From: Moniliella sp. 'wahieum'
Lineage: Eukaryota
Assembly: GCA_003971905.1 (NCBI GenBank)
Contig: RSEE01000032.1
Location: 434,001 to 498,000 of the forward strand
Length of the DNA: 64,000 nucleotides
Reading direction: 5' to 3'
In this document: one piece after another, positions 10,404 through 54,722 of the stretch
Layout: every line of letters starts with the position of its first letter
Position numbering within the stretch: the first letter of the stretch is position 1
Made by a program: the position numbers and the translations under genes
The notes under the pieces: generated by a model
Seen by the model: only the letters and a program-made list of their open reading frames with translations
Told to the model about the DNA's origin: nothing
Databases searched by the model: none

Positions 10404-12968
10404 TGTGGTGGTGGTGGTGTGGGACTATGCTGGCATGGAGGAAGGGGTGAGGGAACAAAGAGCGAGCGTGGGCTGGTATATATATGCCTGCCCCAGCGTA
10501 CGCAGCGACAGGCGTCAGGCGCAGTCCAGCTTAACGCCGCGCACGTGCTGTGGAGTGCTGCCGACTGGTGATGATGCAATCGTATGACTCGACCGGAGGC
10601 GGCCAGGCCGAGATCTTTTGGGACGCGTTGTGCGCAGCAGAGCAGCCCAACACGGACAAGAGCAGCTGTGACACGTGACGTACCACATCACATCCGCGCG
10701 ATATGCACGTCATCGATCATCACCCATCGTGTCAGCAATCCATACTCCGCCCCAGTTAATACGTTAATGCCCGAGTGGCCGACGTCATGCCGTGCTGCGT
10801 AACGGAAAACGCCAGGAACGCGGCCCAGTTGGCCTAGCGTCTAGGCCACTGCTTGCCACTGGCTGGGCCACTGCTTGCCTCTCTCCGGCAACCCGGCCAT
10901 CTACCCCCGCACTCGCGAAGCACGATCCGTGCTGAGCTTAGACATTGAGACTAGCAGGCGCTAGGCCCGTAGAACTTGATTCCTCAAAATTTACAAGGTA
11001 CGGGGGTGCTGGCATGGCGTGTCACTAGCACTGCGTGTAATCCATGTCATCGCACTCAGGTATCCCCGGCCGAACATGGCCGGAGCCATTTTCGAAACGG
11101 AGGCGGCTATAGGGCCGAGCCTGGCCGAACACGCGGCATAATGTCAGGGCGTGGCTGAGCCTCAGCCTTCCTCAGGCCTCAGGGCCTCAGCCCCTCACAG
11201 TTTCAGCGGCTGAGCTGCGCTCGCGCTCTGCTGCGCTCAAGGTTCAAGCGGAGTTACCAGTACCAGCTGCGCGTTACGCGTTCCGCGGCATTACGCGTTA
11301 CGCTAATTTGAGTTGTCGCGGTCGCCTCGGAGGTGGGCGGAAAGGGGGAGGAGGGAGAAGAACGTGTGTCATTGTGGGTCCCAAAGAGGCATCTCCGACA
11401 ATGTACCGTTTCCGTTCTGTACAATAGAACGGAACGGGCCAGGGGGGCTGTCCTGGGATGTCGGGTGGAACGCGGGAGCAGGGATTTAACCGAGTGGCGG
11501 CTACTCAGTACTCAGTCTCAGTACTCATCGACGCCGACGTCGTGTAATACACACACTTGGCACTAAAAAGTACCATGTTGCTAGTTCTATATTGTGCCTT
11601 TTAGCCTGTACATCTCCCATCTGTGGCGTCCTCGAGCTTTCTGAGGCCTGATGCATGCCGGCTGTGTCATGATGATGCATCAGCTGCATCATCAATTAAA
11701 GATTGACTTCAAGCTTCAAGCTTCAAGCTTCCCCAGGGCGAAACAATGACCTTCTGTATTAGGACGGATACAATTAATGTGCAAAAGCCTACCTGTATTA
11801 TACAGCAAGCTGCCGTGTCTTGCAGTGCTGCATGTGCTGCGCCTAAACAGATCAGATCGATCAGAAAAAGCATGTGGCCATGCATGCATGACATGCGGCA
11901 GCACCTTATAAATGTTTCTCATCACTATAGTCACTGAATCTTGATGGGCCAAGCAAGGAATGGAGGGTTACCGGTTACTTGAAGAACGGAGAGGATGATT
12001 TTGATCTGTGTAATAGCTCTCTAAATAGAAAAAAGCATGCCGTTTTCATAGGTTAAGATGTGTCAAGAACACACACAACCATCGATGTATAGGGCTAAGA
12101 TGCACTGATAATTGCTGAATATGTGTGGACATTTTTGCGCCGTGAACGCTGCGGTAACCAAAAACTATGACTGCAATCAATCAGGTGGCCTCTCGACAGT
12201 GCGAAACAGAGGCAAAAGGCGCTGATCACGAGTACACAGGCAAAGGATGCATCGAGTAGGAGCGGTGTTGGTCGTGTGCGGAGAGGAAATGATAGGGGGG
12301 GATATTGAAGTCTTCAACACACGGGGGTACTACTTTCAGGCCTGCGGAGGAGGCAGTGATCTATAGAGCCAGCTTCGCAAAGGGTCGGTCTACGGAGATG
12401 CTGTCATGTTCATGACACTCATTACAATAATGGCAAACAAGTCGATGATATATTTATGGGTATGGTTCACCACAGGTTGACCACTCCTGTTTGGGGGGGG
12501 GCGCCCGGGTTTAATGTATAGAGATATCACCAATCCTGCCCTCGGCGGGAAAAGTGTCTCGATTTATTTGTGTTCGGCAACAGAGGCGAGATCTGAGACG
12601 TCATGCATCATGCGTCATGCAGAGATGAGATCGGGGGAATGAGACTGGGAATGGACTCTCCCCCCCGATCGGGAAACAAGGAGCCGGGCGAGAAGAGCTA
12701 TGGAGGGGGACTATGGGTTCTCAAAGAATCAAGGAAGATCCACCCAAGGAGGCAGGAGACACAGGAAGCGGGTGTGGTGGGAGGGAAGCAATAACTAGGA
12801 GAGGTTTTCTGGATTGACGAATGGTTGAGAGATGACGACAAAATCGGGACAGTGTGTAAGGATGGGGGGGTCTAAAGAGGGGAAACAGCGCAGTATAATA
12901 GACAAAAACGGGGGAAAAGGCACCAGTGGGATCGGTCAGAGGCTACCGAGATTTGTGATTCCTTCCAC

Positions 12969-13204
12969 TGTTGGCCTAGGGGAGCCGGCAGAAGGATGAG
13001 GAGAAGGTGATGGATTGGAGCCAGAGTTGGGTCTGGGTACAGAGGCATCTATATAGGAGGCTGGACTAGGCACAGGGACAGTGAGTCACACAGGAGAGAG
13101 TGCAGGGCACAGGGACAGTGACACGCAGGGACGTCAGCGTGGAAGCCGATGGAACCGAGGCGAACCTGGTCTACCGACTGGGAGCCAGAGGATCACAGTC
13201 AACA
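12969..13204 (-). repeat. LTR copy 1 (236 bp)
   Basis: TG..CA ends; differs from the other copies by small indels near 12980-12990. Confidence 0.92.
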
Positions 13205-13920
13205 CCCCCGCTGGCCAGGGAACCCGGAGACATCGGTTGTGGGATGAGCTCCTGCCAGTGGATGTAGAGAGGGGAGGACTTGAGTGGCAACCGGGACGAA
13301 TGGCCTGGAGTTGTGCATGGCCACACGACTGGCCTACACCCCGCTGTCCAGGATGACACCTGAACGAGCCGAGCGCTTGTGGTTGGTGTATTGTGCGACC
13401 GCCAGATGCTTGTAGAAGTCTTAGAAGTAAAAGTAGTAGGGGTTGCGCCCCGAAGCGATTTGGTGGGCAAAAGTAAAAAGCACCAGTTATAGGTGTAGTG
13501 AAAGAAAATTGGAAACTTGGAGTAAATGCGGTCCAAGGTCGTTTGGCATCAAAATTGGATGCGTTTGGTAGTTGTTTGGTTCCGCATGCCTGGTGCCAGT
13601 GGGGTCCATTGGGCATGGGAAATGAACGGGCGCTATGCGTCAACCGTCTTGATCTGTTTGGGTTCTCTTTGTGTTGAAAAAGAGGAGTGGAAGAAGTTGG
13701 GTGACCACCCCCCCCATCCTTTCCCCAGGTGCCCCGGATGAATTGGCAATCCGGGGCGTGTAGCCGTGGGTGGGGCACTTGATGAGCAGCCACCCCCGCT
13801 TTCTGCGATTCGCCTGCGCCGTTTTGTCGTTGGAGGAATTTCGTCTCGTTGACGATACCCGACACGTTTTGTTCCGTCGTGTGTTGTCCCTAAAAATCAT
13901 TGCCCCATCTGTGGGGGACG

Positions 13921-14000
13921 AGTGTGCCGATTGTGGCGGTAGTATGCCGATTGTGGCGGTAGTATGCCGATTGTGGCGGTAAGGTGCCGATTGTGGCGGT
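13921..14000. repeat. 20-bp tandem repeat, 4 copies, in the retroelement internal region
   Basis: agtatgccgattgtggcggt and close variants. Confidence 0.92.
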
Positions 14001-14122
14001 GGTGTTGTTGGGCGGGAGGACGGGTGTGTCTTGTGGGCTTGGCGGCTTAGCTTGGGCTTGTAGGCTTGGGGGTGGGCTTGCTTGAAGAGCGCTCCCCTTC
14101 CGGGGGGATCAGATTGTAGCTC

Positions 14123-14362
14123 TGTTGGCCTAGGGAGCCGGACGGGCAGAAGGATGAGGAGAAGGTGATGGATTGGAGCCAGAGTTGGGTCTGGGTACAG
14201 AGGCATCTATATAGGAGGCTGGACTAGGCACAGGGACAGTGAGTCACACAGGAGAGAGTGCAGGGCACAGGGACAGTGACACGCAGGGACGTCAGCGTGG
14301 AAGCCGATGGAACCGAGGCGAACCTGGTCTACCGACTGGGAGCCAGAGGATCACAGTCAACA
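14123..14362 (-). repeat. LTR copy 2 (240 bp)
   Basis: Full copy; followed by 134 bp (14363-14496) duplicating 13205-13338. Confidence 0.92.
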
Positions 14363-14496
14363 CCCCCGCTGGCCAGGGAACCCGGAGACATCGGTTGTGG
14401 GATGAGCTCCTGCCAGTGGATGTAGAGAGGGGAGGACTTGAGTGGCAACCGGGACGAATGGCCTGGAGTTGTGCATGGCCACACGACTGGCCTACA

Positions 14497-14723
14497 TGTT
14501 GGCCTAGGGAGCCGGACGGGCAGAAGGATGAGGAGAAGGTGATGGATTGGAGCCAGAGTTGGGTCTGGGTACAGAGGCATCTATATAGGAGGCTGGACTA
14601 GGCACAGGGACAGTGAGTCACACAGGAGAGAGTGCAGGGCACAGGGACAGTGACACGCAGGGACGTCAGCGTGGAAGCCGATGGAACCGAGGCGAACCTG
14701 GTCTACCGACTGGGAGCCAGAGG
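14497..14723 (-). repeat. LTR copy 3 (lacks 13 terminal bp)
   Basis: Matches LTR2 up to ...agccagagg, then 9-nt filler gttaaactc. Confidence 0.9.
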
Positions 14724-14732
14724 GTTAAACTC

Positions 14733-14972
14733 TGTTGGCCTAGGGAGCCGGACGGGCAGAAGGATGAGGAGAAGGTGATGGATTGGAGCCAGAGTTGGGT
14801 CTGGGTACAGAGGCATCTATATAGGAGGCTGGACTAGGCACAGGGACAGTGAGTCACACAGGAGAGAGTGCAGGGCACAGGGACAGTGACACGCAGGGAC
14901 GTCAGCGTGGAAGCCGATGGAACCGAGGCGAACCTGGTCTACCGACTGGGAGCCAGAGGATCACAGTCAACA
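14733..14972 (-). repeat. LTR copy 4 (240 bp)
   Basis: Full copy ending ...gtcaaca, immediately followed by the TSD tccac. Confidence 0.92.
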
Positions 14973-15083
14973 TCCACCTAGGAGAAGCAACCCGATGGGT
15001 GCACCATTCCGTATGGGGTCTGCCGCGTGACGGAGCATGGGAGGAACAGAGGAACAAAAAAGAAACCAGGGGGAGAAGCATAG

Positions 15084-25533: not shown

Positions 25534-26660
25534 CTCAGTACTCATTCGTGCCTGACTAGCTGACTAGTAACTAGTAACTAGTGCCTGGTAGTACCTGGCC
25601 CATGGGGCATGTGTCACTTCGGATTCAGAAGGGTCTAGTTCTGAGAGTATCGTATGGACATCCGATTGTCGAGATCATGGATTGCTTAGTCGAGCGCTGA
25701 TCACGATCTGCTCCGGCGATCTTCCGTCCCCTTCCGTCCCGCGTCCAACGCCCAGATCCAAGATAATCGATATCGATAATCAGAACCACGCATCATGCAT
25801 CCCGTGTCACATATCTCAGACGCAGATGGAATATGGAGCACAGTAGCCGCGGGTAGCCAGTAGCCCCAGGTACCCCTGGCACACCCTGAGCCTGACGCGT
25901 GAGACGGCTCAGAGTGCTGAGGCTGAGCCGCTCAGGCTGAGCGAGCATGCTGAAGCTGACATGTGACATGCATGTGACAGATCTGGGCATCATGCATCAT
26001 GCATCATGTGCATCATGCGTCAAACGCCACGCGCCACGCCAATCTCCATGCGACACCATGAGCAAGTGTCGCGAGGCGTGACGGGACTTAAGCTCTAAGA
26101 TCCAACATGTGTATTGGACGCGATGCAGCTGTGCTGATGCACTGATGCATGAGAGCAGCACGCAGCACACAGCTGTGACGCACGGACGCAGCCCAAACAA
26201 GGTCTTAACAACTAAGATCGGGCATAACGTCCACAACGGTGATCTGGTGATGATGATGCTTGCAAGTCCCGCCCGGATTGAAGAGTGACTAGGCTAGTGA
26301 TTCCCATTGGATGGACAGCGATTATGCAGTGATCAAATGTTAATTCACAATTCCACGCTCCACCGTCGGAGGACCGTTACGCGTACGCAACACGTTTTAA
26401 AAACGCTTAACGCTAACGTTTAGCGTTTAACGTTTAAGGTTTAACGTTTAACCCGTAGCGCTTAACGTTAAGTTTAACGCTTACCGCTTACCGCTTACCA
26501 CTGAGCCACAGCGTAACTTAACCACAGCGTAACGCGTAACCGCGGGATAACCGGTCACGCGGTAACGGGCTAACCAGCAGGCGTAACGAGTAACGCGTGA
26601 AATGCAACAAGAGGGTGTAACCGGGTAAACGCCTGTTAATTTATAGCACGTGAAGCTTGA
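25534..26660. repeat. Dense cluster of 7-bp-period TNA-[4-bp palindrome] arrays
   Basis: TGA CTAG TAA CTAG TAA CTAG (25561); TGA CATG TGA (25957); TCA TGCA TCA TGCA TCA (25990); ACGT TTA GCGT TTA ACGT TTA AGGT TTA ACGT TTA (26416); TAA CGCG TAA (26530); TGA AGCT TGA (26651). Confidence 0.85.
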
Positions 26661-29213
26661 AGACACGGTAGCGCACAAATGCAGCTTGAGCAACTCTGTT
26701 TGGGTTGTATCTCCCCTCTGCTAGAGTGCGGCTTGGGGAGCGCTCGGGGATCCTATGGGATCAGCTGTAAAGCAGCCTGTAGACGAGGCGTAAAGCTTGA
26801 AGGCAAAGTGGTGAGTCATATGTCACAAGTCTTCAAGCAAGGAGACAGGAGAGACAGAAGGAGTTATTGGAGCGAGAAAAGGGGGTGCACGGCCAGCCAT
26901 CGGAACTCTTCCGGCTGGCTAGGCGAGCGTTACCGGTTACCGTTGATGAGCCCCAGCATTGAGGATTGAATATGGAGGACCGTGCAGGGAGACCCTAGTA
27001 CTTCCGTCAAAAAGCTTTCTCGAGAGAGCTAAAAGGTCTTTTTCTTGGCTCTGTCCGAGAGTAAGCCTATTTCAGCTAGCGCTATAGGCAACCCTCGGCT
27101 AATATGCCTGTGTATCAGGCGTATGGTGTCGTCGCAACAACGTCGAATGGTCACATGTCACAGCGAGCGTGTGGGTTGGTGGATGCTTTGGTTCCCACAT
27201 CATCACCAGAATCACCGGCACACCATGATCGCATGTAATCTCGATAGTCACGCCTGTGACAGATACCATTCTTTTACCAATTAATACGCGTTTCAGCTGT
27301 AAAAAAGCTTCTAACTCCATGATGTATGTGATAACGACTTATTAGCTTTTGAAGCTTGTCGAAGCCAGGGATCGTAATGGCGAGGGAGAGACGAGACTCT
27401 CCCCAACTTGGGCGGCCACCTCATCTGCGTGCAAACGTTGCAAGGCTGAGGCCCTGTGGTGACGCGGTGACGGCGCAGCGTGTGCGCATCGGCAAAGGGG
27501 ACCAGGAGATGCGAGCAAAAACCGTATCGAGTATCCTTGATCGTTTTACCCGATTACACCGCTTTCAAAGGTATATATATATATAGGCAAAGACTGAGGC
27601 GGAGACCTATAAGCTATAAGCGCTAAGCGAAGGGAAAAACACCCTCCTTGTGAGCCCGATGTAACCGGGGCCGGGAGTCAAACCGAATGGCCATTGATTC
27701 ATAAGCGTAAGGGTATAAAGAAGTGGGAGATGAAATGAAGAAAGGAGGGTGGAACCGTAATTGGAAGGATAAACCCAGCAGCATCGATAAGGGCGGCAAA
27801 ACGGGATCATCCATGATCGTGTTCGATAGGAAACAGGACGGTCGAGATAAGGACCACATACAGCAAAACCCTTTTATAGACAGAGAAAGATGCTTTATAC
27901 GTTGTATAGATCAAGATTAATTAGAAGGTAGGTGGGAGGAGCTTCGCATGTTACAACAGCGATGCAAAAACGACAAAAAAGCCAGTGCAGTAACGTGTTT
28001 ATATCTGTCACATGTCACGCGTCACGAGGTACACTTGAGGCCTGGTTCCTTCCGTATATATAAGCAGGCCTGCCTAAAAAGGCTTGCTAGCTGGTATGGT
28101 CCTTATCGACCATCCTTTGATGCTGGATAAGACCCGCACACGCCAGCGAGGCGGAGGAAGGGGAGATTCAAGCCTCAGTACGAAGAGCGTTGCATCACAA
28201 TGTGGAACGAGCTTTGGTAGGTGAAAAAATAATATGCGAGTCTGACGGACGCGATGGTTCGTTGAACACCGTACTAGCTGTGTACATTCATATTCAACTA
28301 CGCTTGTTGAACACGTTGAACCCCGCTATACTGCTTGTACTGTTGAATAAAGCGCACTTGCTCCAAACCTTGCGATTGTTTGAGCCAAGATACAAACTGC
28401 CTCAAACTTATTTGAAACTCGTTCGGGGTATGCCTCTCAGACCAAACCTAGCACCACTTATTGTTTCCGTTTTCCCCTTTTTCTATCATTGCGTTTCTAC
28501 TAGAGAGATACAGTCTAGACCCCTTTTGTTACACGCTTTGGTCCTATATAAGGGCAAAGCCAATCCACGTTTCTTTGGGACCCACCGGTCCCGCGCAGTG
28601 AGAAGTGCCTGCCGTGTGGTATAGCTTTCCCCTTCACCAACTCTCTCGATCACCCTCGACATCTCAACACGTACTATGTCTGGCTGACAGCTGACAAAAA
28701 GGTGTCTCCCTCAAGCTTACAGACCAATAAGTTCCGAATCTTTCAGATCTGCACCTTTTGTGCCGTTCCTCTACTTGATATCGTATAGCAAGCGCAAGGG
28801 TGAACCGTGGACCAATCATCGTTGGAGCTGATGTTGGCCACCACTGGCAGTAGTGCCTACATATTAGAACCTTAAGTTCGGGGTACTCCACGGTGGGGAA
28901 AATTCGCGAGAATAACGGGGGGGTTTCAGGTCTTCAGTGCACGCGTACTTCATGCCAATGCCGTTTGAGCCATCCTTCCTGGAGTATCGTTTTTTCCTTA
29001 CCACCCGGACCCGCTTTTCGACACCCACAGTCTAATGGGGAGGGGAGGGGGTATAGAACATACGATGATATATACCACGCTGTGCACACCAGCAATAAAA
29101 ACCAGGGAGGGAGGTGTGCAACAGTGTCTTCGCTCGCGCAATCACAGACGAATGGGAAATAGCCACGATGGAAAATGGTGGTGTCCGTGCGTGTGTTAAT
29201 ACTTTCTCTTGTG

Positions 29214-31222: not shown

Positions 31223-32119
31223 AGTCGTTGCTGTCGTTGGGGGTGTAGCGGACGTGGTATCAGTCTGCCTGCGCCAAAGGAGGTGGAAAAAGGGATGGAA
31301 GGCTGGGGGGGGGGGGGGGGGGGCACGCCCCGGGAAGCGTTGAGTGAGATTGTTTAAATGAGAGTCGCTTGTTAGTGGCTCGTGCTCAGAATGGTAACGC
31401 AGTTAATTCTGGTGGTAGCCGTCACCCGCGTCACCGGCCCTGACGGGTGACCGACGGGGCCGGGACAGGGCGGGGAAGCCGTTCGAGGGCACTCCGCGTT
31501 TCACGGCCAGCATAATCGATAATCCCACATTATTCGCCTTTATGTCGCGAAACAATCATTTGTTAACCTCTGTGGACAGTGAACATGGGCGCACCACCGA
31601 CAACAGACGCCAAAAACGGATTGCTATCATGAAAACAGGTGATGTGACGGTAATGTATACGGAATGAATGAACACAACATTGGGTGGGAGAGGGGAGAGA
31701 CTGAGAGATGTGATGGTGAAAAAGCATGATAGGGATCGAGAGAGAAAAGAAGAACGTGTTGTAAACTGCTTTTACACTTGTGTAGAATGATAGATGATGA
31801 ATGGTGGTAAAACCGTGCGAGCCGTTACAGCGGCGGAGTAATGGCCGCAGCCGCAAGCGAGAAGTGATGGAGTAAGGGGAATGTGGAAAGACAAAACAGT
31901 CAAATCATACGATGGGGATACCCTATGACTTGAAAAGGGGGCTGCCCGAAATGCACATCGAATATACACTAGTATACACTCTGTGCCTCTCGAAAAGTCT
32001 CTTCTTCGGCCTGCGGCGTGCCAAAGTTGAGACGTTCTCAGTGTCCGCTCATTAGGTGCGAATGAGGATAAGAAAGCGGTTAAGGGCGTTCCGGTTGATA
32101 GCAGAGTACGATTCCTCGT

Positions 32120-41466: not shown

Positions 41467-41921
41467 TAATCGATAACCGGTAACCCGTAACCGGTTATAC
41501 GCCCCTGGGTGTGGTGTGGGGTACCATCATGCATCATGCATCATGCCACACCGGTGCTATATACAACACGCGTTATACGCTCTTCCACAGAGGCGCTCTC
41601 CCGCTCCGCCCCCGTGGCTGTATGCATAATGCTGGCATTTTTCGATCACACATTATATGCGTTGGACACCACCACTACCGCCTCTCCCCTCTCGGCTTGG
41701 GACGAGGGTCCTGTGAAACCACAAATCCATCCGGGCGGCGTATCCAGCCATGGCCTTTTTCCACCGACTCGCGGAGCAGAGTAGCTCGTGTCGGGAGTGC
41801 TCCACCATGCGTATTGCTTAATCACACGTAACTAGTAACTAGTGATGCATGATGCATGGTGTACGTACGCTGAACTTTCAGTTGAAACACTATTAAATAT
41901 ATTAAAGCTTAACGTTAACGT
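41467..41921. repeat. Cluster of 7-bp-period TNA-[4-bp palindrome] arrays with mixed cores
   Basis: TAA TCGA TAA CCGG TAA CCCG TAA CCGG TTA (41467); TCA TGCA TCA TGCA TCA (41527); TAA CTAG TAA CTAG TGA TGCA TGA TGCA (41829). Confidence 0.85.
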
Positions 41922-42498
41922 GCCGCATTTGGCGCGTAATGTTTTAAGCTTGTTTCCGGCTACCCTTTCCCCATTTGCCACCCAGCGCCGCGGAGTATCT
42001 GGGCGGAGTTGGCAGATGCCTGCAGAGCCGCGCAGGTCCGGCGACGCCCGGCTCTGAGACAACAGTGTTTGGATGCAACAAAGCGTGTGACCTGTGGCAT
42101 GCGAGGCTGTGATTGGCCAGCCAAACGGCCTCCGATGGCGGTGCGGCCTGGTGCGGCCCAGTACGAAGCGTAGCCGGTCGGCCCGCAAAGGCACCCCCTG
42201 GCACCCCGCTGTCACCGATCACCGGTCACCCCCGAAGGAGTTGCTCCGACAAAGCGGCCTGCTTCGCTCCGGCAGAGCGCCCAGGAGCGAGTGGCGCACG
42301 CACTGGGCCATGCCGCAACGCTATCGCACACAGGCGCCGTGCCCTTCTTCATGCATCACGCGTCACGCTACCCCAGCCAGTCGGAGTTTGCTCCGTGTCC
42401 TGCCGCCCCGCGCTTGGAGTAGCAGACTCGTCGGCTCTGTTGTTATTTTGCGCGCTCGCTTCCACGTTTCCTCCTTTTCTCCCTCCACCTCCCCCCTT

Positions 42499-44120
42499 AT
42501 GTCCTCCGGTCCACCCCCTACTCTTCCTTCGCCACGCCCACGCCGCATCCCATCTTCACCGCTGCCTCCGCCCCCACTTCCGCCTTGCTCCCCCCGGGCC
42601 GCTCTTCTCGCCTGCATCCGCCTCCCGCTGCAACCCCTCCACCCCTGCTGTCGTCATTGCCCTCGCCCATCTCCTTGGCCTCTGCAGTGCCACCCGTGTT
42701 CCCAGCCCCACCCGCCTCCCCAGTCCCTCTGGGTCAGCTTCCGTCCCCCGCCTTGGATCTGGCGCGGCCCGATCTGTCCTGGGACCACCATACCCGGTCC
42801 TCACCACTCTTCGGCCCCTGTCTCCTTCGACGTGTTTCCCATCAGCGACGACACGTCCTGCTCGTCAGGTTCCCCATATGACCTTGACCACAACTCCGAG
42901 AGTGGCAAATGCGCTGTCCTCTCCACCTCACCCCTTCAAGACTCAAACTCGGAACAGTCCCCAGCAATGTGGGTCGCACCCCAACTTGAGCTCAGCAGGA
43001 AATCAAGCTCTCCTCAAGTGGCCTGTCCTGTAGCCTTGCCCCCCGCAGGCAGCGTAACCAGCCAGGCAGCAAGGGCATCACAGGCAAACGCATACTTGGC
43101 GCCACCTGCTGCTTCCGCCCTTATGTACTCATCTTCCCCGCCCGCCTTGACCTCGGATGCGTTATCATCTTCTACCCGACTGTCAGTTCCGTCGTCGGGA
43201 TGTGTTCGTCCAGGGAAAGCACAACGTCACCGCCTTTCTCGTCTTGACACTACTGCGACTATGGATAAGTACCGCACTATCGACGCACCTCTTCCCCCCA
43301 CTGGGTTGTCATCATTTGCTGCCTCACCCAAGCCGGAACCTGCGATCCAACACAGCTCTGGACGTGAAAGCACCGTTCCATCTCCCTACCATGATCTGGC
43401 ATCGAAGGACCCTTGCATTAGCTGCATTGTCCCCGGCTTTCTCTTCCTCGGTCCGGACATTACATGTGCCTCGGACGTGGCACATCTGCACACGTTGGGT
43501 GTCCGGCGGATCATCAATGTTGCTTACGAGATCCCCGATTGGGGCCAGCCCAGACTCGACTTGCGAAAGCAGTTTGAGAGGTACCACTGTATCCCTCTCC
43601 AGGATTCAGTGGAAGCGGAAAGAGAGTAGAAGAAGTGATTGACGAAGCCTGCGCGTTGTTACGTACGTTTGGATCCCTCCTCGGCCTCAATGCCGCTCTT
43701 GATGCTTTTTGTTTCCCATTTTCTGACATACTAGTTGATCTCTCTCCAGACGAAGCCGAAGAGCAATCGGCTCCAACCTACGTACACTGTCATGTGGGCC
43801 AAAGTCGTTCAGTGATGGTAGTGATTGCGTATCTGATGTATTCCCGTCGTTGGACTTGGAAAAAGGCGTACCGCTACGTTTCCCTATCCCGTCCGTCAGC
43901 CTCGCCCAATCTTGGCTTTGTGTCGGAATTACTCAACTTTGAGCGCCGCTTGGGCCTCGACACGCCTGCACCGGGCTGGGACGAAATGCGCACCCAGGAC
44001 CAACAGTGGCATCCAACATTGTCTTCATCTCCTGCTCCATGTCGTAATGAGAGCAGAGAAGCGCCCCAGTGGCTTTCTCGTCCTCCAAGTGCGGTTTCTG
44101 GGCGTCTCTCCCATTCCTAG
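42499..44120 (+). CDS. Dual-specificity (MAPK-type) protein phosphatase; intron 43663-43749
   Basis: IVPGFLFLG, LGVRRIINVA, IPLQD, active-site VHCHVGQSRSVMVVIAYLM, SPNLGFVSELLNFE. Confidence 0.9.
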
Positions 44121-49799: not shown

Positions 49800-52700
49800 T
49801 CATCCTGCGTTCAAATCTGCGATTGGTACCAAGGGGGGGTGGAGGCGGTGGCGGTGGCGGTGGCGGGAGAGAGAGCGGGCAAAGACAGGATAAAGTGAGG
49901 CCGTTGACGGCACCACAAGCTTGTTCAAGTAGCCCCCACCCATCCGTGCCTAGATGCGGTGGTCTGGCCTGCTGCTGTCCCCCTGTTGGGGGCAGTGTCG
50001 ACAAGCCACTCTGTTCGGCGATTGCGCCGCTTGAACTTGAAGTTGAAGCGAGGGAAGGAAATGGGGGACAGCACGGCGAGAACCGTACCAGGTGTTGGCT
50101 GCGATCATGGCAAGACGATGCTGGATTCCAGCCATCCTGCCCCCCGCCGCGGCTATTACGGCCCAGAACAGACGACGGGCCGAGCGAAGAGTATGCATTG
50201 TGCAGCCAAATGCCGAGTGGCGCATGCACTGCCCATCCCCAACTCCGATCCCCCAACTCCGACCCCCCCCCCCCAACCCGATGGCTGGCCCCGTCGCTCG
50301 CATGTAGCGTGCAATCGGCCGTCCCAGCCGCAGCGCCCACCCCGCGAGCGGAGCGGCGCTTAGGCTGGCGGGTGGCCCACTGGCACCCGCCCGTTCGCTG
50401 CGCGCGTTCCAGCCCCCGCCTTGCCCCGCCCTCGGCGTGCGCTGGGAAGAGCGGCATAGAGCCCCCCCGGTGCGGCTGCTGCTGCCGGTCCCACACTCGC
50501 CACGCCCGCAGGTGCCACCGCCGTCTCCCGCGCTGTCCCGCCCCCCTGGCCACCGCCTGCTCCTCTCCCGTGTTCTCTCCCTCCTCCGGCTCCCCATCCG
50601 CATCCGCATCCACATTGGACCGTCGGTGGAACTTGTACACATGCTGGCTCAGCGCATGGCGCGTTGGCCCCGCATAGTTGTTGCACAGCACCACTCGTAG
50701 GGACGTGCGCCAGTGTGGATACGCATGTGCCACGCCAGCGCAGGAGGGGAGCGAACGGTGCGGTTGCAGATCGGACAGGTGACGCCTTCGCCCCCCTTGC
50801 CCTCTGAGCCCATTTTGAAAGACGTGCGGGCGCCCGCGCAGACACACGCGCCCGCTTGCCCCCCGGCCGGCTGATTGCTTCCCCCCGCCCGCGCTCCCGT
50901 CGCAGCAAGGGGAGCAGCCGAGCCAGTGGAAATGTTGCCCTCGTCAGAGACAATGGGTTTGTTGCTTGGGACAGGAGCCGATTTGCGTCGCTCCTTGGCG
51001 TTCTGGTTCTGCTCGCGATGGTGCTTGTAGATGTGCTGGTGAAGAGCATGGCGGGTAGGGCCTGCATACTCGGAGCAGAGCGTACACTGAAACGGTCGAG
51101 GCCCTTGGTGCGTGCGTATGTGCCAAGCTAACGCAGGAGGCGAGCGAACACCTTTCCCACATATAGAACACTTCAACGCAGAACGACCCTCTGCGCCCGC
51201 TGCCGTGGCCATGGCAGCCGTGTCTGCATCAGCGGATTTCCCCGTTCGTTCGCAACGACCGTCGCGGGAGAAGACATTCCAGACAGCCCACTTCCCATTT
51301 GATCCGCACCAGGCACGCCTCGAACGGGCGCGGGACCAGGGGGGGGCATCGGTCCAACGGCAGGCGATTGGAGCTGGTCTTGCCATTGGCATGCAGACGA
51401 GATCGCTTCGTGGGCCGTGCGGATTGCTTAGCACCCCGCTTCGACTTGGCTCCTTGTGCATTGGAAGGAGGTGCGCCGGACACAGAAGCTCCGTCCTCGG
51501 CTAGGGGACGACCTGTAGAATTGCGACTGGGCGCATATGAGCCCGAGTCCACCGCCACCCCTGCGTACGGCGCATTGTTCCTGGCTCGTCCTGCATCCCG
51601 AGAGCCAGGGGCAGACTGAATCGGCCCAGAAGGCTTGGACAGCGATGCTGTCGAGATCGATTTGGGGTTGACCGACGTTACACCTGAACTGATCGAGGTG
51701 AGTGGGGCTGATGCGTCGGTATCACCAACGGAGGAAGAATGATGATGTGCCGAATAGTAGGGCGAAGATGGGACCTGAGACCCCGACTTTGCCCTCGACG
51801 AAGGATGCGGAGCTTGGGCCTGCAGCATTGACATACTGGGCGGCAAGCCAGACGCCGAGACAGCAGGTAGCATACCCGATCCAGCCAACGTCCCTGCCGG
51901 AGGCAAGCTCGGGACCGTGGCTGGTAGGGGGCTAGTTCCTGAAAAAGACGCATCAGGAGATCCCACTGCAGGCGCAGCGCGGGTCTGAGTGCGCCGCCGC
52001 CCGTTTCCCCGTGCAGGCCGTCGCGAAGAAGATGGGGCCGCCGTAGGAGGAAGAGTCGATTCAAGCTGCAGGCCGGTGAAACCAACAGGAGACCCTTGGA
52101 GTCCCACATTTGCGGAAGCAGCCAATCCGGCAGGGGACATGGCTACTTGAGTTGAAGCCATGTCGGGTTGATGGTGTGGCCCGGTGCTGGAAAGGAGATG
52201 GGGTGAAGAGGTGTACATAGGTTGCCCGTATTGGTTGAACTGAGGAGAGTATTGCTGCTGCTGTGCGACTTGGGCCTGGAACTGGGCTTGCATCTGGGCC
52301 TGTGCCTGTGCTTGAGCTTGAGCTTGGGCTTGAACTTGAGCTTGAGCTTGAGCTTGGGCCTGGGCCTGGGCCTGGGCCTGAGCTTGGGCTTGGGCTTGCG
52401 CAGCTTGAGCTTGAACTTGAGCTTGGGCTTGGGCCTGAGCGTCTGCCTGGATTTGAGCTTGGGCTTGGGCTTGAGCCTGAGCGTCTGCCTGGATTTGAGC
52501 TTGGGCTTGGGCTTGAGCCTGGTGTTGTGCATAGTGCTGCTGGTACTGCATCTGAGGCTGGGTATACTGACCGTACGGCAAAGGTTGCGTGTGCTGAGAA
52601 GGGGTGCTTTGGGAAAGGGGAGTATGGGCCTGAGCTTGTGTACCGTGCATCTGGGATGAGAGAGCAGGCGACGCAGCGGGGGGAGGAGACCAACCCCAGG

Positions 52701-53118
52701 TACGGTCAGAGTAACCGCGTTTGGATCGCGAGTCTTCCTCTAGTGACTGGAAGGCAAGCATGGGATCGGTCAGACCCATGTATGTACCCTGTGTGCGGTA
52801 CGACGAATCGGTTCGCGCTGGACGGCCATCGTATCCGCGCACCTCACTCGCCCCCGGAGGCGGAGGGGGGAACGGAGGGATGGGCGGCGTGCTGGACCAG
52901 CGAAGCGGGCCCAGGGCTTGCAGTTTGAGCTTGGGACAAAGCAGAATAGTTGTGTGCTGCTGGATACGTGCCAGCAGTGTTGGCAGCGCCATGGGCGTAG
53001 CCGGGGACAGGAGGCGGGATACCGCTGCTGCTGGTCGTGGCGGGGACGGCGCGTGAATAGGCAGCGGCGGGAAAACGCGGTCGTCACCCGCACGCATTGG
53101 CCAGCGGTCGCGGGACAT
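49800..53118 (-). CDS. C2H2 zinc-finger transcription factor with a poly(QA) tract; 3' end approximate
   Basis: CSICGKGVRSPPALAWHIRTHQGPRPFQCTLCSEYAGPTRHALHQHIYKHH and a second similar pair CPICNRTVRSPPALAWHMRIHTGARPY..LCNNYAGPTRHALSQHVYKFH. Confidence 0.85.
52270..52520 (-). repeat. Coding hexanucleotide repeat encoding (QA)n
   Basis: ttgagc/ttgggc/ctgggc units; includes a duplicated 42-bp QIQADAQAQAQAQA block. Confidence 0.9.
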
Positions 53119-54722
53119 GGATCCACGCGGGGCAGGGTGGGGGGGGGGGTGATCTGGATGGGGGGAGGGGCGAGGAGAGACGCGGGGTGGGACGGCTGGT
53201 GGTGTGGTGGCGGGAGCAGGCGGGAGTGCGCGAGCAGGGGATGGGATGGGAATGCGCGCTGGGCCGCTGAGCCCACGCGCCGAACGCCTGGGTCAGCATC
53301 CACGGCGCACCTGTCGCCCAAGCAAGGCGGCGGGCACCACACAGGCGCCGTGCGGGCGTGAACCATCCACGGACACTCGCCTGGTGCGCTGTCCGAGCGC
53401 CGCGAATAATGTGCTACTTGAGAGCGTGAGGTCTGAGACTTGGAGATGAGGCTTGTTCGAAGGGGCTTGTTTTTAGTAGCAGGCCAAGATGGGTTAAGCC
53501 ATTGAGGCTTCGAGTCTTGAGGAGCTTGAAGCTTTAGGCATGGCGAGGCAGAGTTACATTTACAGGTGGCAACTGGGGGCCTTCCTCGTCACTAGCACTG
53601 GCACTAGCGCCCGGGTGACTATAGTGATGTAGTGACTAGTCAAGCTCAGCGGCTCAAGTGGCTCGTCCAGTTGACTGGTGGCTTCGTGACTACTAGCCAA
53701 GTGACAGTAGTAGTCACAGCCAAGTGACCCCTAGGAGTGGCTACATCACTGGGGAGAACACCCACGGCTAGTTCTCAGGCCGAGGCGGACGCGTTCAACT
53801 AACGTGGAAGCAACACCAATTCCGCCATTGGGCAGTTTGAGTTGTCAGATCATGATGATCGATCAGTTGTGGGGTTACCGGTTACCGGTTGCCGGTTAGT
53901 ACTTCTTAGTGTTTAGCTACTAGTAGCGAGCGAAAACGGGGAGAGGAAGGAGAAGAAGGGCAAGGAAGTAATAACAGAGGGCAGACGAAGCCATGATGTA
54001 TACTGAGGCAGTCTGAGGCTGCGGAAAGGGCGCGTGCCCAGGCCGAAGCCGTGCGCCTCAGGGTTCTGGGGCACAGCGCCCACGCGCGCGCGGCCTTCCC
54101 TTTCTGTCCTTCTCCCTCCTGTGTCGCTACCAGTACCCACTTCCTTACCGCTCCTATCGTCGGGTCTGCTACTAATTACACAGCCGAGTGGTTGCTAGTG
54201 TCAAGCTCAAGCTTCAAGCTTCAAGGAAGCTTCAAGTCCACGGCGCAACAGGGGCATGCCACTGGTATGCCGGCGGCGGGGCTTCCATCCAGGCGGAACG
54301 TGAAGCTTGAAGGCTTTGCTGGCTGTGGCGCTTATATGCGCCCATGCGTGATGGGGGTGGAAAAAGACTGAGAGCACCGCAGTCAGGCTATTTGCTATTT
54401 ATAATGCCCTTGAATTGACATCCCGCACTACTGCCCCAACAATTGGGCTTAGTGTATGTGAGTTGTGAAGCTGAGCGAGCTGAGCGCGCTGAGCACAGAC
54501 CGAGCGTGCAGCACTCGCCCAAGTAAACTTAGTAACTGGTAGCGCCATATATAACGCGCAACGAGGACCAGTGGTAGAGGTGATATAGCCTCTTCTCGAA
54601 TATAATTGCTGTCGGTCGACTGCGCTAAATAAAACTCTAGCTCCGCTTCGGTGCAAGAGCCCCACCACCACTCGCCGCCCCAAGTGGGTTTACTCCGCCC
54701 CCTCCACCACCACCTAGCGGCC

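Follow-up and report, generated by a model that had tools for sequence, protein, structure and literature searches.

Mixed-core palindromic arrays at T-N-A sites as probable stacks of separate seven-base insertions

Genomic context of the two arrays

The window, by which we mean the whole stretch of DNA analyzed, is 64 kb long, and the counts given below are from this single sequence. It is eukaryote-like, with copper transporter, PIP5K, MFS, EF-hand, kinase, C2H2, MBOAT, and WD40 domains in interrupted frames. Two arrays of 7-bp units, in which three-base TNA anchors alternate with 4-bp cores, lie inside a frame-poor gap of approximately 2.8 kb. Downstream of this gap are open frames with a phosphatase domain at their end. 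The distance from the arrays to the downstream open frame is 230–620 bp. The features of this region, with anchors in capitals and with cores and flanks in lower case, are as follows:

41467–41497: array 1, gg TAA tcga TAA ccgg TAA cccg TAA ccgg TTA ta (read from the sequence)
41527–41545: same-core array between arrays 1 and 2, ca TCA tgca TCA tgca TCA tg (CATCATG, 3.1 copies)
41822–41828: TCA cacg, its TNA in register and its core not a palindrome (read from the sequence)
41829–41861: array 2, cg TAA ctag TAA ctag TGA tgca TGA tgca TGg tg (read from the sequence)
41903–41918: links TAA agct TAA and TTA acgt TAA, overlapping at an offset of 6, out-of-register neighbors of the arrays
42091–44117, plus strand: open frames downstream of the arrays (frame listing and Pfam)
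42349–42365: different-core chain ct TCA tgca TCA cgcg TCA cg, 500 bp downstream of the arrays
43578–44117, plus strand: dual-specificity phosphatase domain (Pfam)

Array 1 holds five TNA anchors in a single 7-bp register, and its cores are tcga, ccgg, cccg, and ccgg, the third of which (cccg) is non-palindromic. In array 2, the core changes from ctag to tgca and the N from A to G at positions 41843–41845, and the array extends past 41856 to TGG tg (41857–41861). TCA cacg (41822–41828; core at 41825–41828) is not demonstrably part of array 2. The sequence-only reading had reported both stretches, their core switches, and the constant 7-bp register, and all of these are exact in the sequence, with the qualification that cacg and cccg are not palindromes.

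Other repeats were also present in the window. A homopolymer of 19 G occurs at 31305–31323, and a GCTTGA hexamer repeat of approximately 34 copies, with a 42-bp higher-order unit, occupies 52310–52518 within a long minus-strand open frame (51232–53292). The region 12968–15054 contains a dispersed and tandem repeat family of approximately 230–375 bp, with four copies that are 97–100% identical; two of the copies are separated by 1.15 kb, and one unit, of 236 bp, occurs in tandem. This family may be LTR-like or a recent segmental duplication. When its copies, which form the sole repeat family in the window, were compared with one another, they revealed no 7-bp indel at TNA and one 4-base gap.

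Abundance of TNA-palindrome-TNA links and the 5+2 insertion rule

The arrays belong to a pattern that extends throughout the window. Six-base palindromes were enriched at spacings of 7, 14, and 21 (45, 40, and 27 pairs, respectively), and the other spacings from 8 to 30 contained 14 to 30 pairs. Two TNA anchors separated by a 4-bp palindrome, referred to here as a link, were observed 103 times in the window, against 6.8 expected from simulations with an order-2 Markov chain, which was the null model for the expected counts. The runner-up anchor pair was TNG (34 vs 14.8 expected), and no other pair came near the enrichment of TNA. Palindromic cores were present in 103 of the 262 TNA-4N-TNA sites and comprised 14 different sequences. 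The links grouped into 89 chains, of which 76 were single, 12 double, and one triple, the longest chain thus consisting of three links. As a small control, three unrelated eukaryote-like metagenome contigs with similar G+C contents were searched, and their 19.8 kb contained two links and no strict event; these contigs correspond to three loci with 37–40% protein identity and are too distant for orthologous spacers to be compared. Open frames span 62.6% of the window and contained 12 of the 103 links; the other 91 were located in approximately 24 kb outside the frames, a non-coding space that is a crude estimate derived from the open frames themselves.

The links obey an insertion rule at T-N-A, which we state with high confidence: TNAcd becomes TNAcd + d'c' + TNAcd. 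Five bases are copied directly and two are inverted, so that seven bases are added and a 4-bp palindrome is built from the flanking dinucleotide; the mirror-image 5+2 event takes the left flank. The exact 12-mer predicted by the rule was found 89 times on both strands of the window, compared with 0.2 expected, whereas plain 5-bp duplications at TNA were unenriched (4 vs 4.8 expected). Among the plus-strand repeats of the form TNAcd-xy-TNAcd, xy was the reverse complement of cd in 48 of 62, and most of the 14 exceptions differed from it by one letter. The flank was equal to the half-core in 67 of the 82 links with the same N on both sides (right only, 26; left only, 19; both, 22). Because matches to one flank dominate, the palindrome was usually built from a single flank. 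The first anchor letter was T in 89 of 106 cases, which indicates that T belongs to the site. Inverted bases derived solely from the TNA end were seen in two cases.

Several alternative geometries were tried and rejected. A plain 7-bp duplication of a pre-existing palindrome conflicts with the 45 of 82 links that match on one side only, and the k = 3 classes, which would arise if the 3-bp TNA were duplicated and the inverted bases lay next to it, were unenriched. A 4-base copy with three inverted bases was discarded in view of T as the first anchor letter (89/106), and one inverted base per side fitted only one of the 14 exceptions. The cores matched the flank, which ruled out the remnants of element ends as their source.

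Minor classes accompanied the dominant one. Insertions with one inverted base (the +6 class, TNAcd + d' + TNAcd) numbered 15 against 1.3 expected, approximately tenfold over the simulation, with the limitation that four of the 15 lay within the coding hexamer repeat at 52310–52518 and are false hits. The events of this class were located as follows:

24686, 25089, 25393, 26408, 36889, 41909, 53554, and 54201, plus strand: +6 events with one inverted base
61964, 28296, and 25895, minus strand: +6 events with one inverted base

Classes with three and four inverted bases contained two and three cases, respectively, against 0.0 expected. Half-cores composed only of A and T (cd = AA, AT, TA, or TT) were found in none of the 89 strict events, compared with 18.6 expected, whereas TG, TC, CA, and AG were approximately twofold over-represented as cd, and the N of TNA matched the background. 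The absence of A/T-only half-cores may reflect the choice of target or the position of opening at hairpin tips composed of A and T only. A search of the literature, covering main articles, returned no earlier description of such arrays or scars, and the genome-wide scar pattern is apparently undescribed.

Junctions between different cores

Of 14 internal junctions, 10 connected the same core and four connected different cores (at 28008, 41467, 41836, and 42349). Two of these four strict different-core junctions are arrays 1 and 2 themselves. At 42349, the second core is mirrored by the right flank, and the left flank is off by one letter. The remaining chain is:

28008–28024: different-core chain tg TCA catg TCA cgcg TCA cg, each core mirroring its own outer flank

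Two 5+2 events at the same TCA, the first left-handed and the second right-handed or vice versa, are predicted to give exactly this chain.

Junctions between different cores in the same register exceed chance. Different-core link pairs at an offset of exactly 7 numbered four, a small count from this one 64-kb window, against approximately 0.6 expected (Poisson P of approximately 0.004, lambda 0.64), the baseline being 21 different-core pairs over 36 offsets (1 to 42, with multiples of 7 excluded). When one anchor letter at most was allowed to be off, nine in-register triples with two different palindromic cores were found, whereas 40 simulations with the order-2 Markov chain averaged 0.4 and never exceeded 2. 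In these nine triples, seven of the 18 outer flanks mirrored the adjoining core, where approximately 1.1 were expected. The sequence-only reading had named chance juxtaposition of independent arrays as the outcome that would speak against it, and the strict and relaxed counts both lie above the chance expectation (4 vs approximately 0.6 and 9 vs 0.4).

The excess can be understood from the rule itself. After a first event, the locus has the form ab-TNA-cd d'c'-TNA-cd and offers four possible second events, at either TNA and with left or right handedness. Three of the four reproduce the same core, and the fourth copies the outer flank ab and creates a new palindromic core. In general, the core stays the same when an inner half-core is copied, and a new core arises when an outer flank or a point-mutated half-core is copied. 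Since each new event is anchored on a TNA of the existing array, it falls in register by construction. The preservation of phase through a core switch, to which the sequence-only reading had attached weight, is therefore automatic and calls for no separate explanation.

Independent 5+2 events were simulated at random TNA sites in 24 kb, with and without substitutions, and tuned to approximately 100 visible links. The simulated sequences contained 6.1–6.8 same-core and 1.9–3.0 different-core junctions, compared with the 10 and four observed. At least four different-core junctions were present in 10–33% of the simulations and 10 same-core junctions in 12–18%, and the total of 14 observed junctions compares with 8–10 in these slippage-free simulations. 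Because independent events fit the junctions, neither slippage nor hot spots are required. The mixed share (4 of 14) is near the expected quarter. Mixed-core arrays are thus an expected by-product of the 5+2 rule and not a separate phenomenon. The count of heterotypic against homotypic neighbors that the sequence-only reading had proposed accordingly gave four versus 10 in the window, a ratio that is reproduced by independent events.

Stepwise dissection of arrays 1 and 2

To dissect the two arrays, exact 5+2 events were removed step by step with substitutions allowed, and the results were compared with those of a model restricted to duplication. Under the 5+2 rule, one, two, and three units were removable from array 1 with zero, one, and two substitutions, respectively. 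One such path treats the left flank gg as a mutated ga and the core cccg as a mutated ccgg, and leaves the remainder TAA ccgg TTA:

41488–41497: residual link TAA ccgg TTA of array 1 after 5+2 removal, a perfect 10-bp palindrome with N changed from A to T

From array 2, two units were removable with no substitution and three with one (TGG from TGA), and the remainder was TAA ctag TGA. Duplication alone removed 0, 2, and 2 units from array 1 and 2, 2, and 3 units from array 2 with zero, one, and two substitutions, respectively. For these arrays, the 5+2 rule saves only about one substitution relative to slippage alone. In each array, the rule left one link unexplained, in which N has changed (TAA ccgg TTA and TAA ctag TGA); the former, at 41488–41497, can be accommodated if one more substitution is assumed.

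The statement of the sequence-only reading that slippage is insufficient therefore survives, in the modest sense that slippage alone fits the arrays worse by approximately one substitution. Its estimate of the arrays as the strongest evidence for independent addition was too high, considering that each requires one or two substitutions and retains an unexplained link; the templating of cores by flanks throughout the window is the stronger evidence.

Decay of the units after insertion

Links that differed only in N showed an excess of 16.1 over two positions (8.0 per position, with the simulated background subtracted). The corresponding values were 28.0 over four positions (7.0 per position) for links with one anchor letter off and 26.1 over four positions (6.5 per position) for links with one broken core pair. 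The 21 N differences included eight transitions and nine complements, without clear bias. Because changes in N accrue like those at other positions, they are ordinary substitutions that followed insertion, and the view that the switching of N is a special feature of the arrays is not upheld (excess of 8.0 at N, 7.0 in the anchor, and 6.5 in the core).

Broken cores likewise persist at the per-site rate of other positions, which means that nothing maintains their symmetry. The symmetry of the palindromes is made at insertion and is not maintained afterwards. The proposal that units are added independently or that symmetry is actively generated is thus supported, since palindrome-making addition proceeds unit by unit (48/62; 89 vs 0.2), with the qualification that broken cores persist and symmetry receives no upkeep after insertion.

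From the ratio of one-off to perfect links, we estimated a decay of approximately 8% change per site. This is enough for a flank or a half-core to mutate and then to be mirrored by a later event. In chains such as the following two, a perfect core stands beside an imperfect one and mirrors its first half:

15352: TGA tgca TGA tgcg, in which the perfect core mirrors the first half of the imperfect neighbor
26930: TTA ccgg TTA ccgt, in which the perfect core mirrors the first half of the imperfect neighbor

Proposed mechanism and comparison with known systems

On balance, we favor the interpretation that the arrays are stacks of separate rule-bound insertions, each of which would have passed through a 5-base staggered break with a hairpin, most likely in the course of repeated insertion and excision of an element. 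A hairpin break is the likeliest chemistry of the scars. The break would be made with a 5-base stagger at a TNA site, and the end away from the TNA would be sealed as a DNA hairpin. Opening of this hairpin two bases off its tip would produce P nucleotides, and the opened end would then be joined by end joining, leaving TNAcd-d'c'-TNAcd. The classes with one, three, and four inverted bases correspond to the spread expected from variable hairpin opening. The agent could be a cut-and-paste element that hairpins its flanks and is repeatedly inserted and excised, and transposon excision is the likeliest, though unproven, source of the scars.

Joints of the RAG/Transib type, such as V(D)J coding joints and Transib excision sites, likewise combine a 5-base duplication with a flank hairpin and a short inverted copy of the flank end at the joint. 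P nucleotides of two bases are of typical length at such joints. Unlike these joints, the scars have T-N-A at one end of the 5-mer and inverted bases only at the other, and they are far more uniform than V(D)J coding joints and are stacked into arrays. The hAT footprints of Ac/Ds and Hermes also retain a target duplication and inverted flank bases at the empty donor site. Canonical hAT elements duplicate 8 bp at nTnnnnAn and nick one base into the flank. In the scars, by contrast, the copy consists of five bases, with T and A one base apart and not four; no class with an 8-base copy was present among the 39 classes listed. A footprint worked out by hand from the one-base offset nick of canonical hAT differs from TNAcd-d'c'-TNAcd, and this candidate was rejected. 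The geometry of the scars thus fits RAG/Transib better than canonical hAT. Two characters of flank-hairpin footprints are present in the scars: a direct 5-base copy starting at the TNA is retained (89 vs 0.2), which would correspond to a target duplication, and an inverted copy of the flank end lies between the direct copies (48/62).

Footprints of the Tc1/mariner type, which consist of the target duplication and a few element-end bases from each side, would also give TNA-[4-bp palindrome]-TNA, and would be palindromic because the ends of the element are inverted copies of each other. However, their core would be constant within a family, whereas 14 cores were found here and they followed the flank in 67 of 82 same-N links. 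A template switch at a quasi-palindrome likewise makes a direct and an inverted copy in one event and yields paired, seemingly compensatory changes, but it needs an imperfect inverted repeat and gives variable lengths, whereas the scars have fixed lengths, a TNA site, and usually no partner arm. Microsatellites that grow by slippage share with the arrays the short head-to-tail 7-bp units and differ in that the cores of the arrays are not uniform and most loci have one extra unit; the number of arrays is accounted for by the slippage-free model.

According to PMC5499845, transposases of the hAT, Transib, RAG, and MULE kinds form hairpins on the flanking DNA; these are opened by enzymes of the host, Artemis among them, and footprints remain after end joining. 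Target duplications of 5 bp are described for Transib and RAG in PMC8355894. Transib, the superfamily with a 5-bp duplication and a flank hairpin, is reported to be absent from fungi in PMC5751038. PMC12730594 describes fungal EnSpm/Plavaka-like groups with duplications of 2–5 bp and CA..TG ends, and hAT families with duplications of 5, 6, and 7 bp, some of them in rust fungi.

No transposase domain was detected by Pfam in any of the 123 stop-free frames of at least 130 amino acids in the window, and no RAG1-like gene or CAC-type ends were seen there. A search for terminal inverted repeats with target duplications considered pairs of equal 5-mers within 12 kb whose inverted ends matched at 12 or more of 14 positions. 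It gave two hits, which we estimate to be about the chance number; one of them had a TNA-type duplication:

27253–28014: candidate of 762 bp, A+T-richer, with TCACG on both sides and 12 of 14 end matches

Its inverted ends read C[C/A]TGTGACAGATA, with CA..TG-like termini. Approximately 0.3 such hits are expected by chance according to our estimate; the segment is single-copy in the window, and a similarity search beyond the window gave no look-alike. The 11-mer end of the candidate, which includes a scar-type heptamer, occurred five times with at most one mismatch, against 0.67 expected. The right end of the segment adjoins the mixed-core chain at 28008. The segment might represent a small non-autonomous element capable of leaving such scars, but its match is at chance level. 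Membership of the scars in any transposon family is unsupported. The one-sided origin of the inverted bases, always the end opposite the TNA, argues against a transposon, as a symmetric transposase dimer does not predict this asymmetry; a TNA at one end of the 5-mer is also odd for such an enzyme.

Alternative explanations

The one-sidedness of the inverted copy would be less surprising if the cut were made by a nuclease encoded by the host, for example a domesticated one, that produces a 5-base staggered break at TNA and hairpins one end with no mobile element involved. The scars would then result from an endogenous, TNA-directed, hairpin-forming process of break and repair, of an undescribed kind and without a conventional mobile element. 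The lack of an element or transposase in the window and the high density of scars (91 links outside open frames in approximately 24 kb) are compatible with this, and domesticated hAT transposases that make hairpin-capped breaks exist in yeast (Kat1, PMC4763223). Nevertheless, we regard such a process as rather unlikely: it lacks a known candidate gene, the window offers nothing to set its scars apart from those of transposon excision, and scarring promoters this densely should cost the host. If it were true, an endogenous activity would keep writing 7-base palindromic insertions into gene-flanking DNA, make palindromes at which dimeric factors might bind, and seed 7-bp arrays from any sequence, and the mixed-core arrays would be the clearest record of successive hits at one spot. 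A replication error (a short-range, quasi-palindrome-type template switch), in which the polymerase switches template, copies two bases on the opposite strand, and re-copies five, would dispense with both the double-strand break and an enzyme-made hairpin, and its product is a direct plus an inverted copy of adjacent sequence. We give this a small chance, below that of a host nuclease, because the events are tied to T.A anchors, their lengths are fixed with 5+2 strongly dominant, broken palindromes are left uncorrected, and A/T-only half-cores are missing (0/89 vs 18.6 expected). Moreover, 45 of the 82 same-N links match one flank only (26 on the right and 19 on the left), and a match to one flank alone means that there was no pre-existing partner arm or microhomology for switching back.

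If the arrays were ordinary 7-bp microsatellites that expanded by slippage, their cores would have to have diverged by paired compensatory substitutions or gene conversion. Same-core pairs can indeed be removed equally well as tandem duplications (two units of array 2 with no substitution under both models), but the cores tcga and ccgg, like ctag and tgca, differ by paired changes, and at a decay of approximately 8% a paired core change is expected well under once across all units of the arrays, whereas four strict and nine relaxed junctions were seen. In addition, 76 of the 89 chains consist of a single added unit and the longest of three links, and a flank is mirrored even where no earlier palindrome was present. 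With two substitutions, slippage removes two units of array 1 where the rule removes three, and three units of array 2 cost it two substitutions instead of one. Slippage is therefore very improbable as the source of the arrays. Selection for cis-regulatory elements, that is, promoter rows of palindromic sites for dimeric factors, would suit the location of the arrays 230–620 bp upstream of an open frame and the concentration of links in frame-poor DNA. The avoidance of coding frames is, however, equally expected of neutral scars that shift the frame, and a regulatory role is difficult to reconcile with 14 different cores, with a core set by the neighboring dinucleotide and not by a consensus, and with uniform decay at all positions; it is the least credible of the explanations considered.

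If the arrays are instead stacks of separate insertions made through hairpin-ended breaks, the window holds a dense natural record of one stereotyped repair outcome, its 64 kb containing approximately 90 clean events and a roughly similar number of decayed events. A simple insertion rule would then yield palindromes and short tandem arrays from arbitrary sequence, and core changes that look compensatory would need neither selection nor structure-dependent correction. The scars would also give a direct read-out of the position of hairpin opening, two bases off the tip in most events, and would point to a very active DNA-cutting agent that acts next to genes.

Complex structures elsewhere in the window

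Two further structures with related units were observed elsewhere in the window. The 200-bp segment at 26400–26600 is a tangle of TTAACG, TAACGC, and TTACCGC units in several overlapping registers, and Tandem Repeats Finder reported it as 14 copies of a 7-mer with 78% matches. Decayed events appear to be stacked more densely here than anywhere else in the window. At 25957–25983, the sequence TGA catg TGA catg catg TGA ca contains two TGA anchors 11 bases apart that enclose a doubled core, catgcatg; inverted bases retained from both ends in a single event would fit this arrangement.
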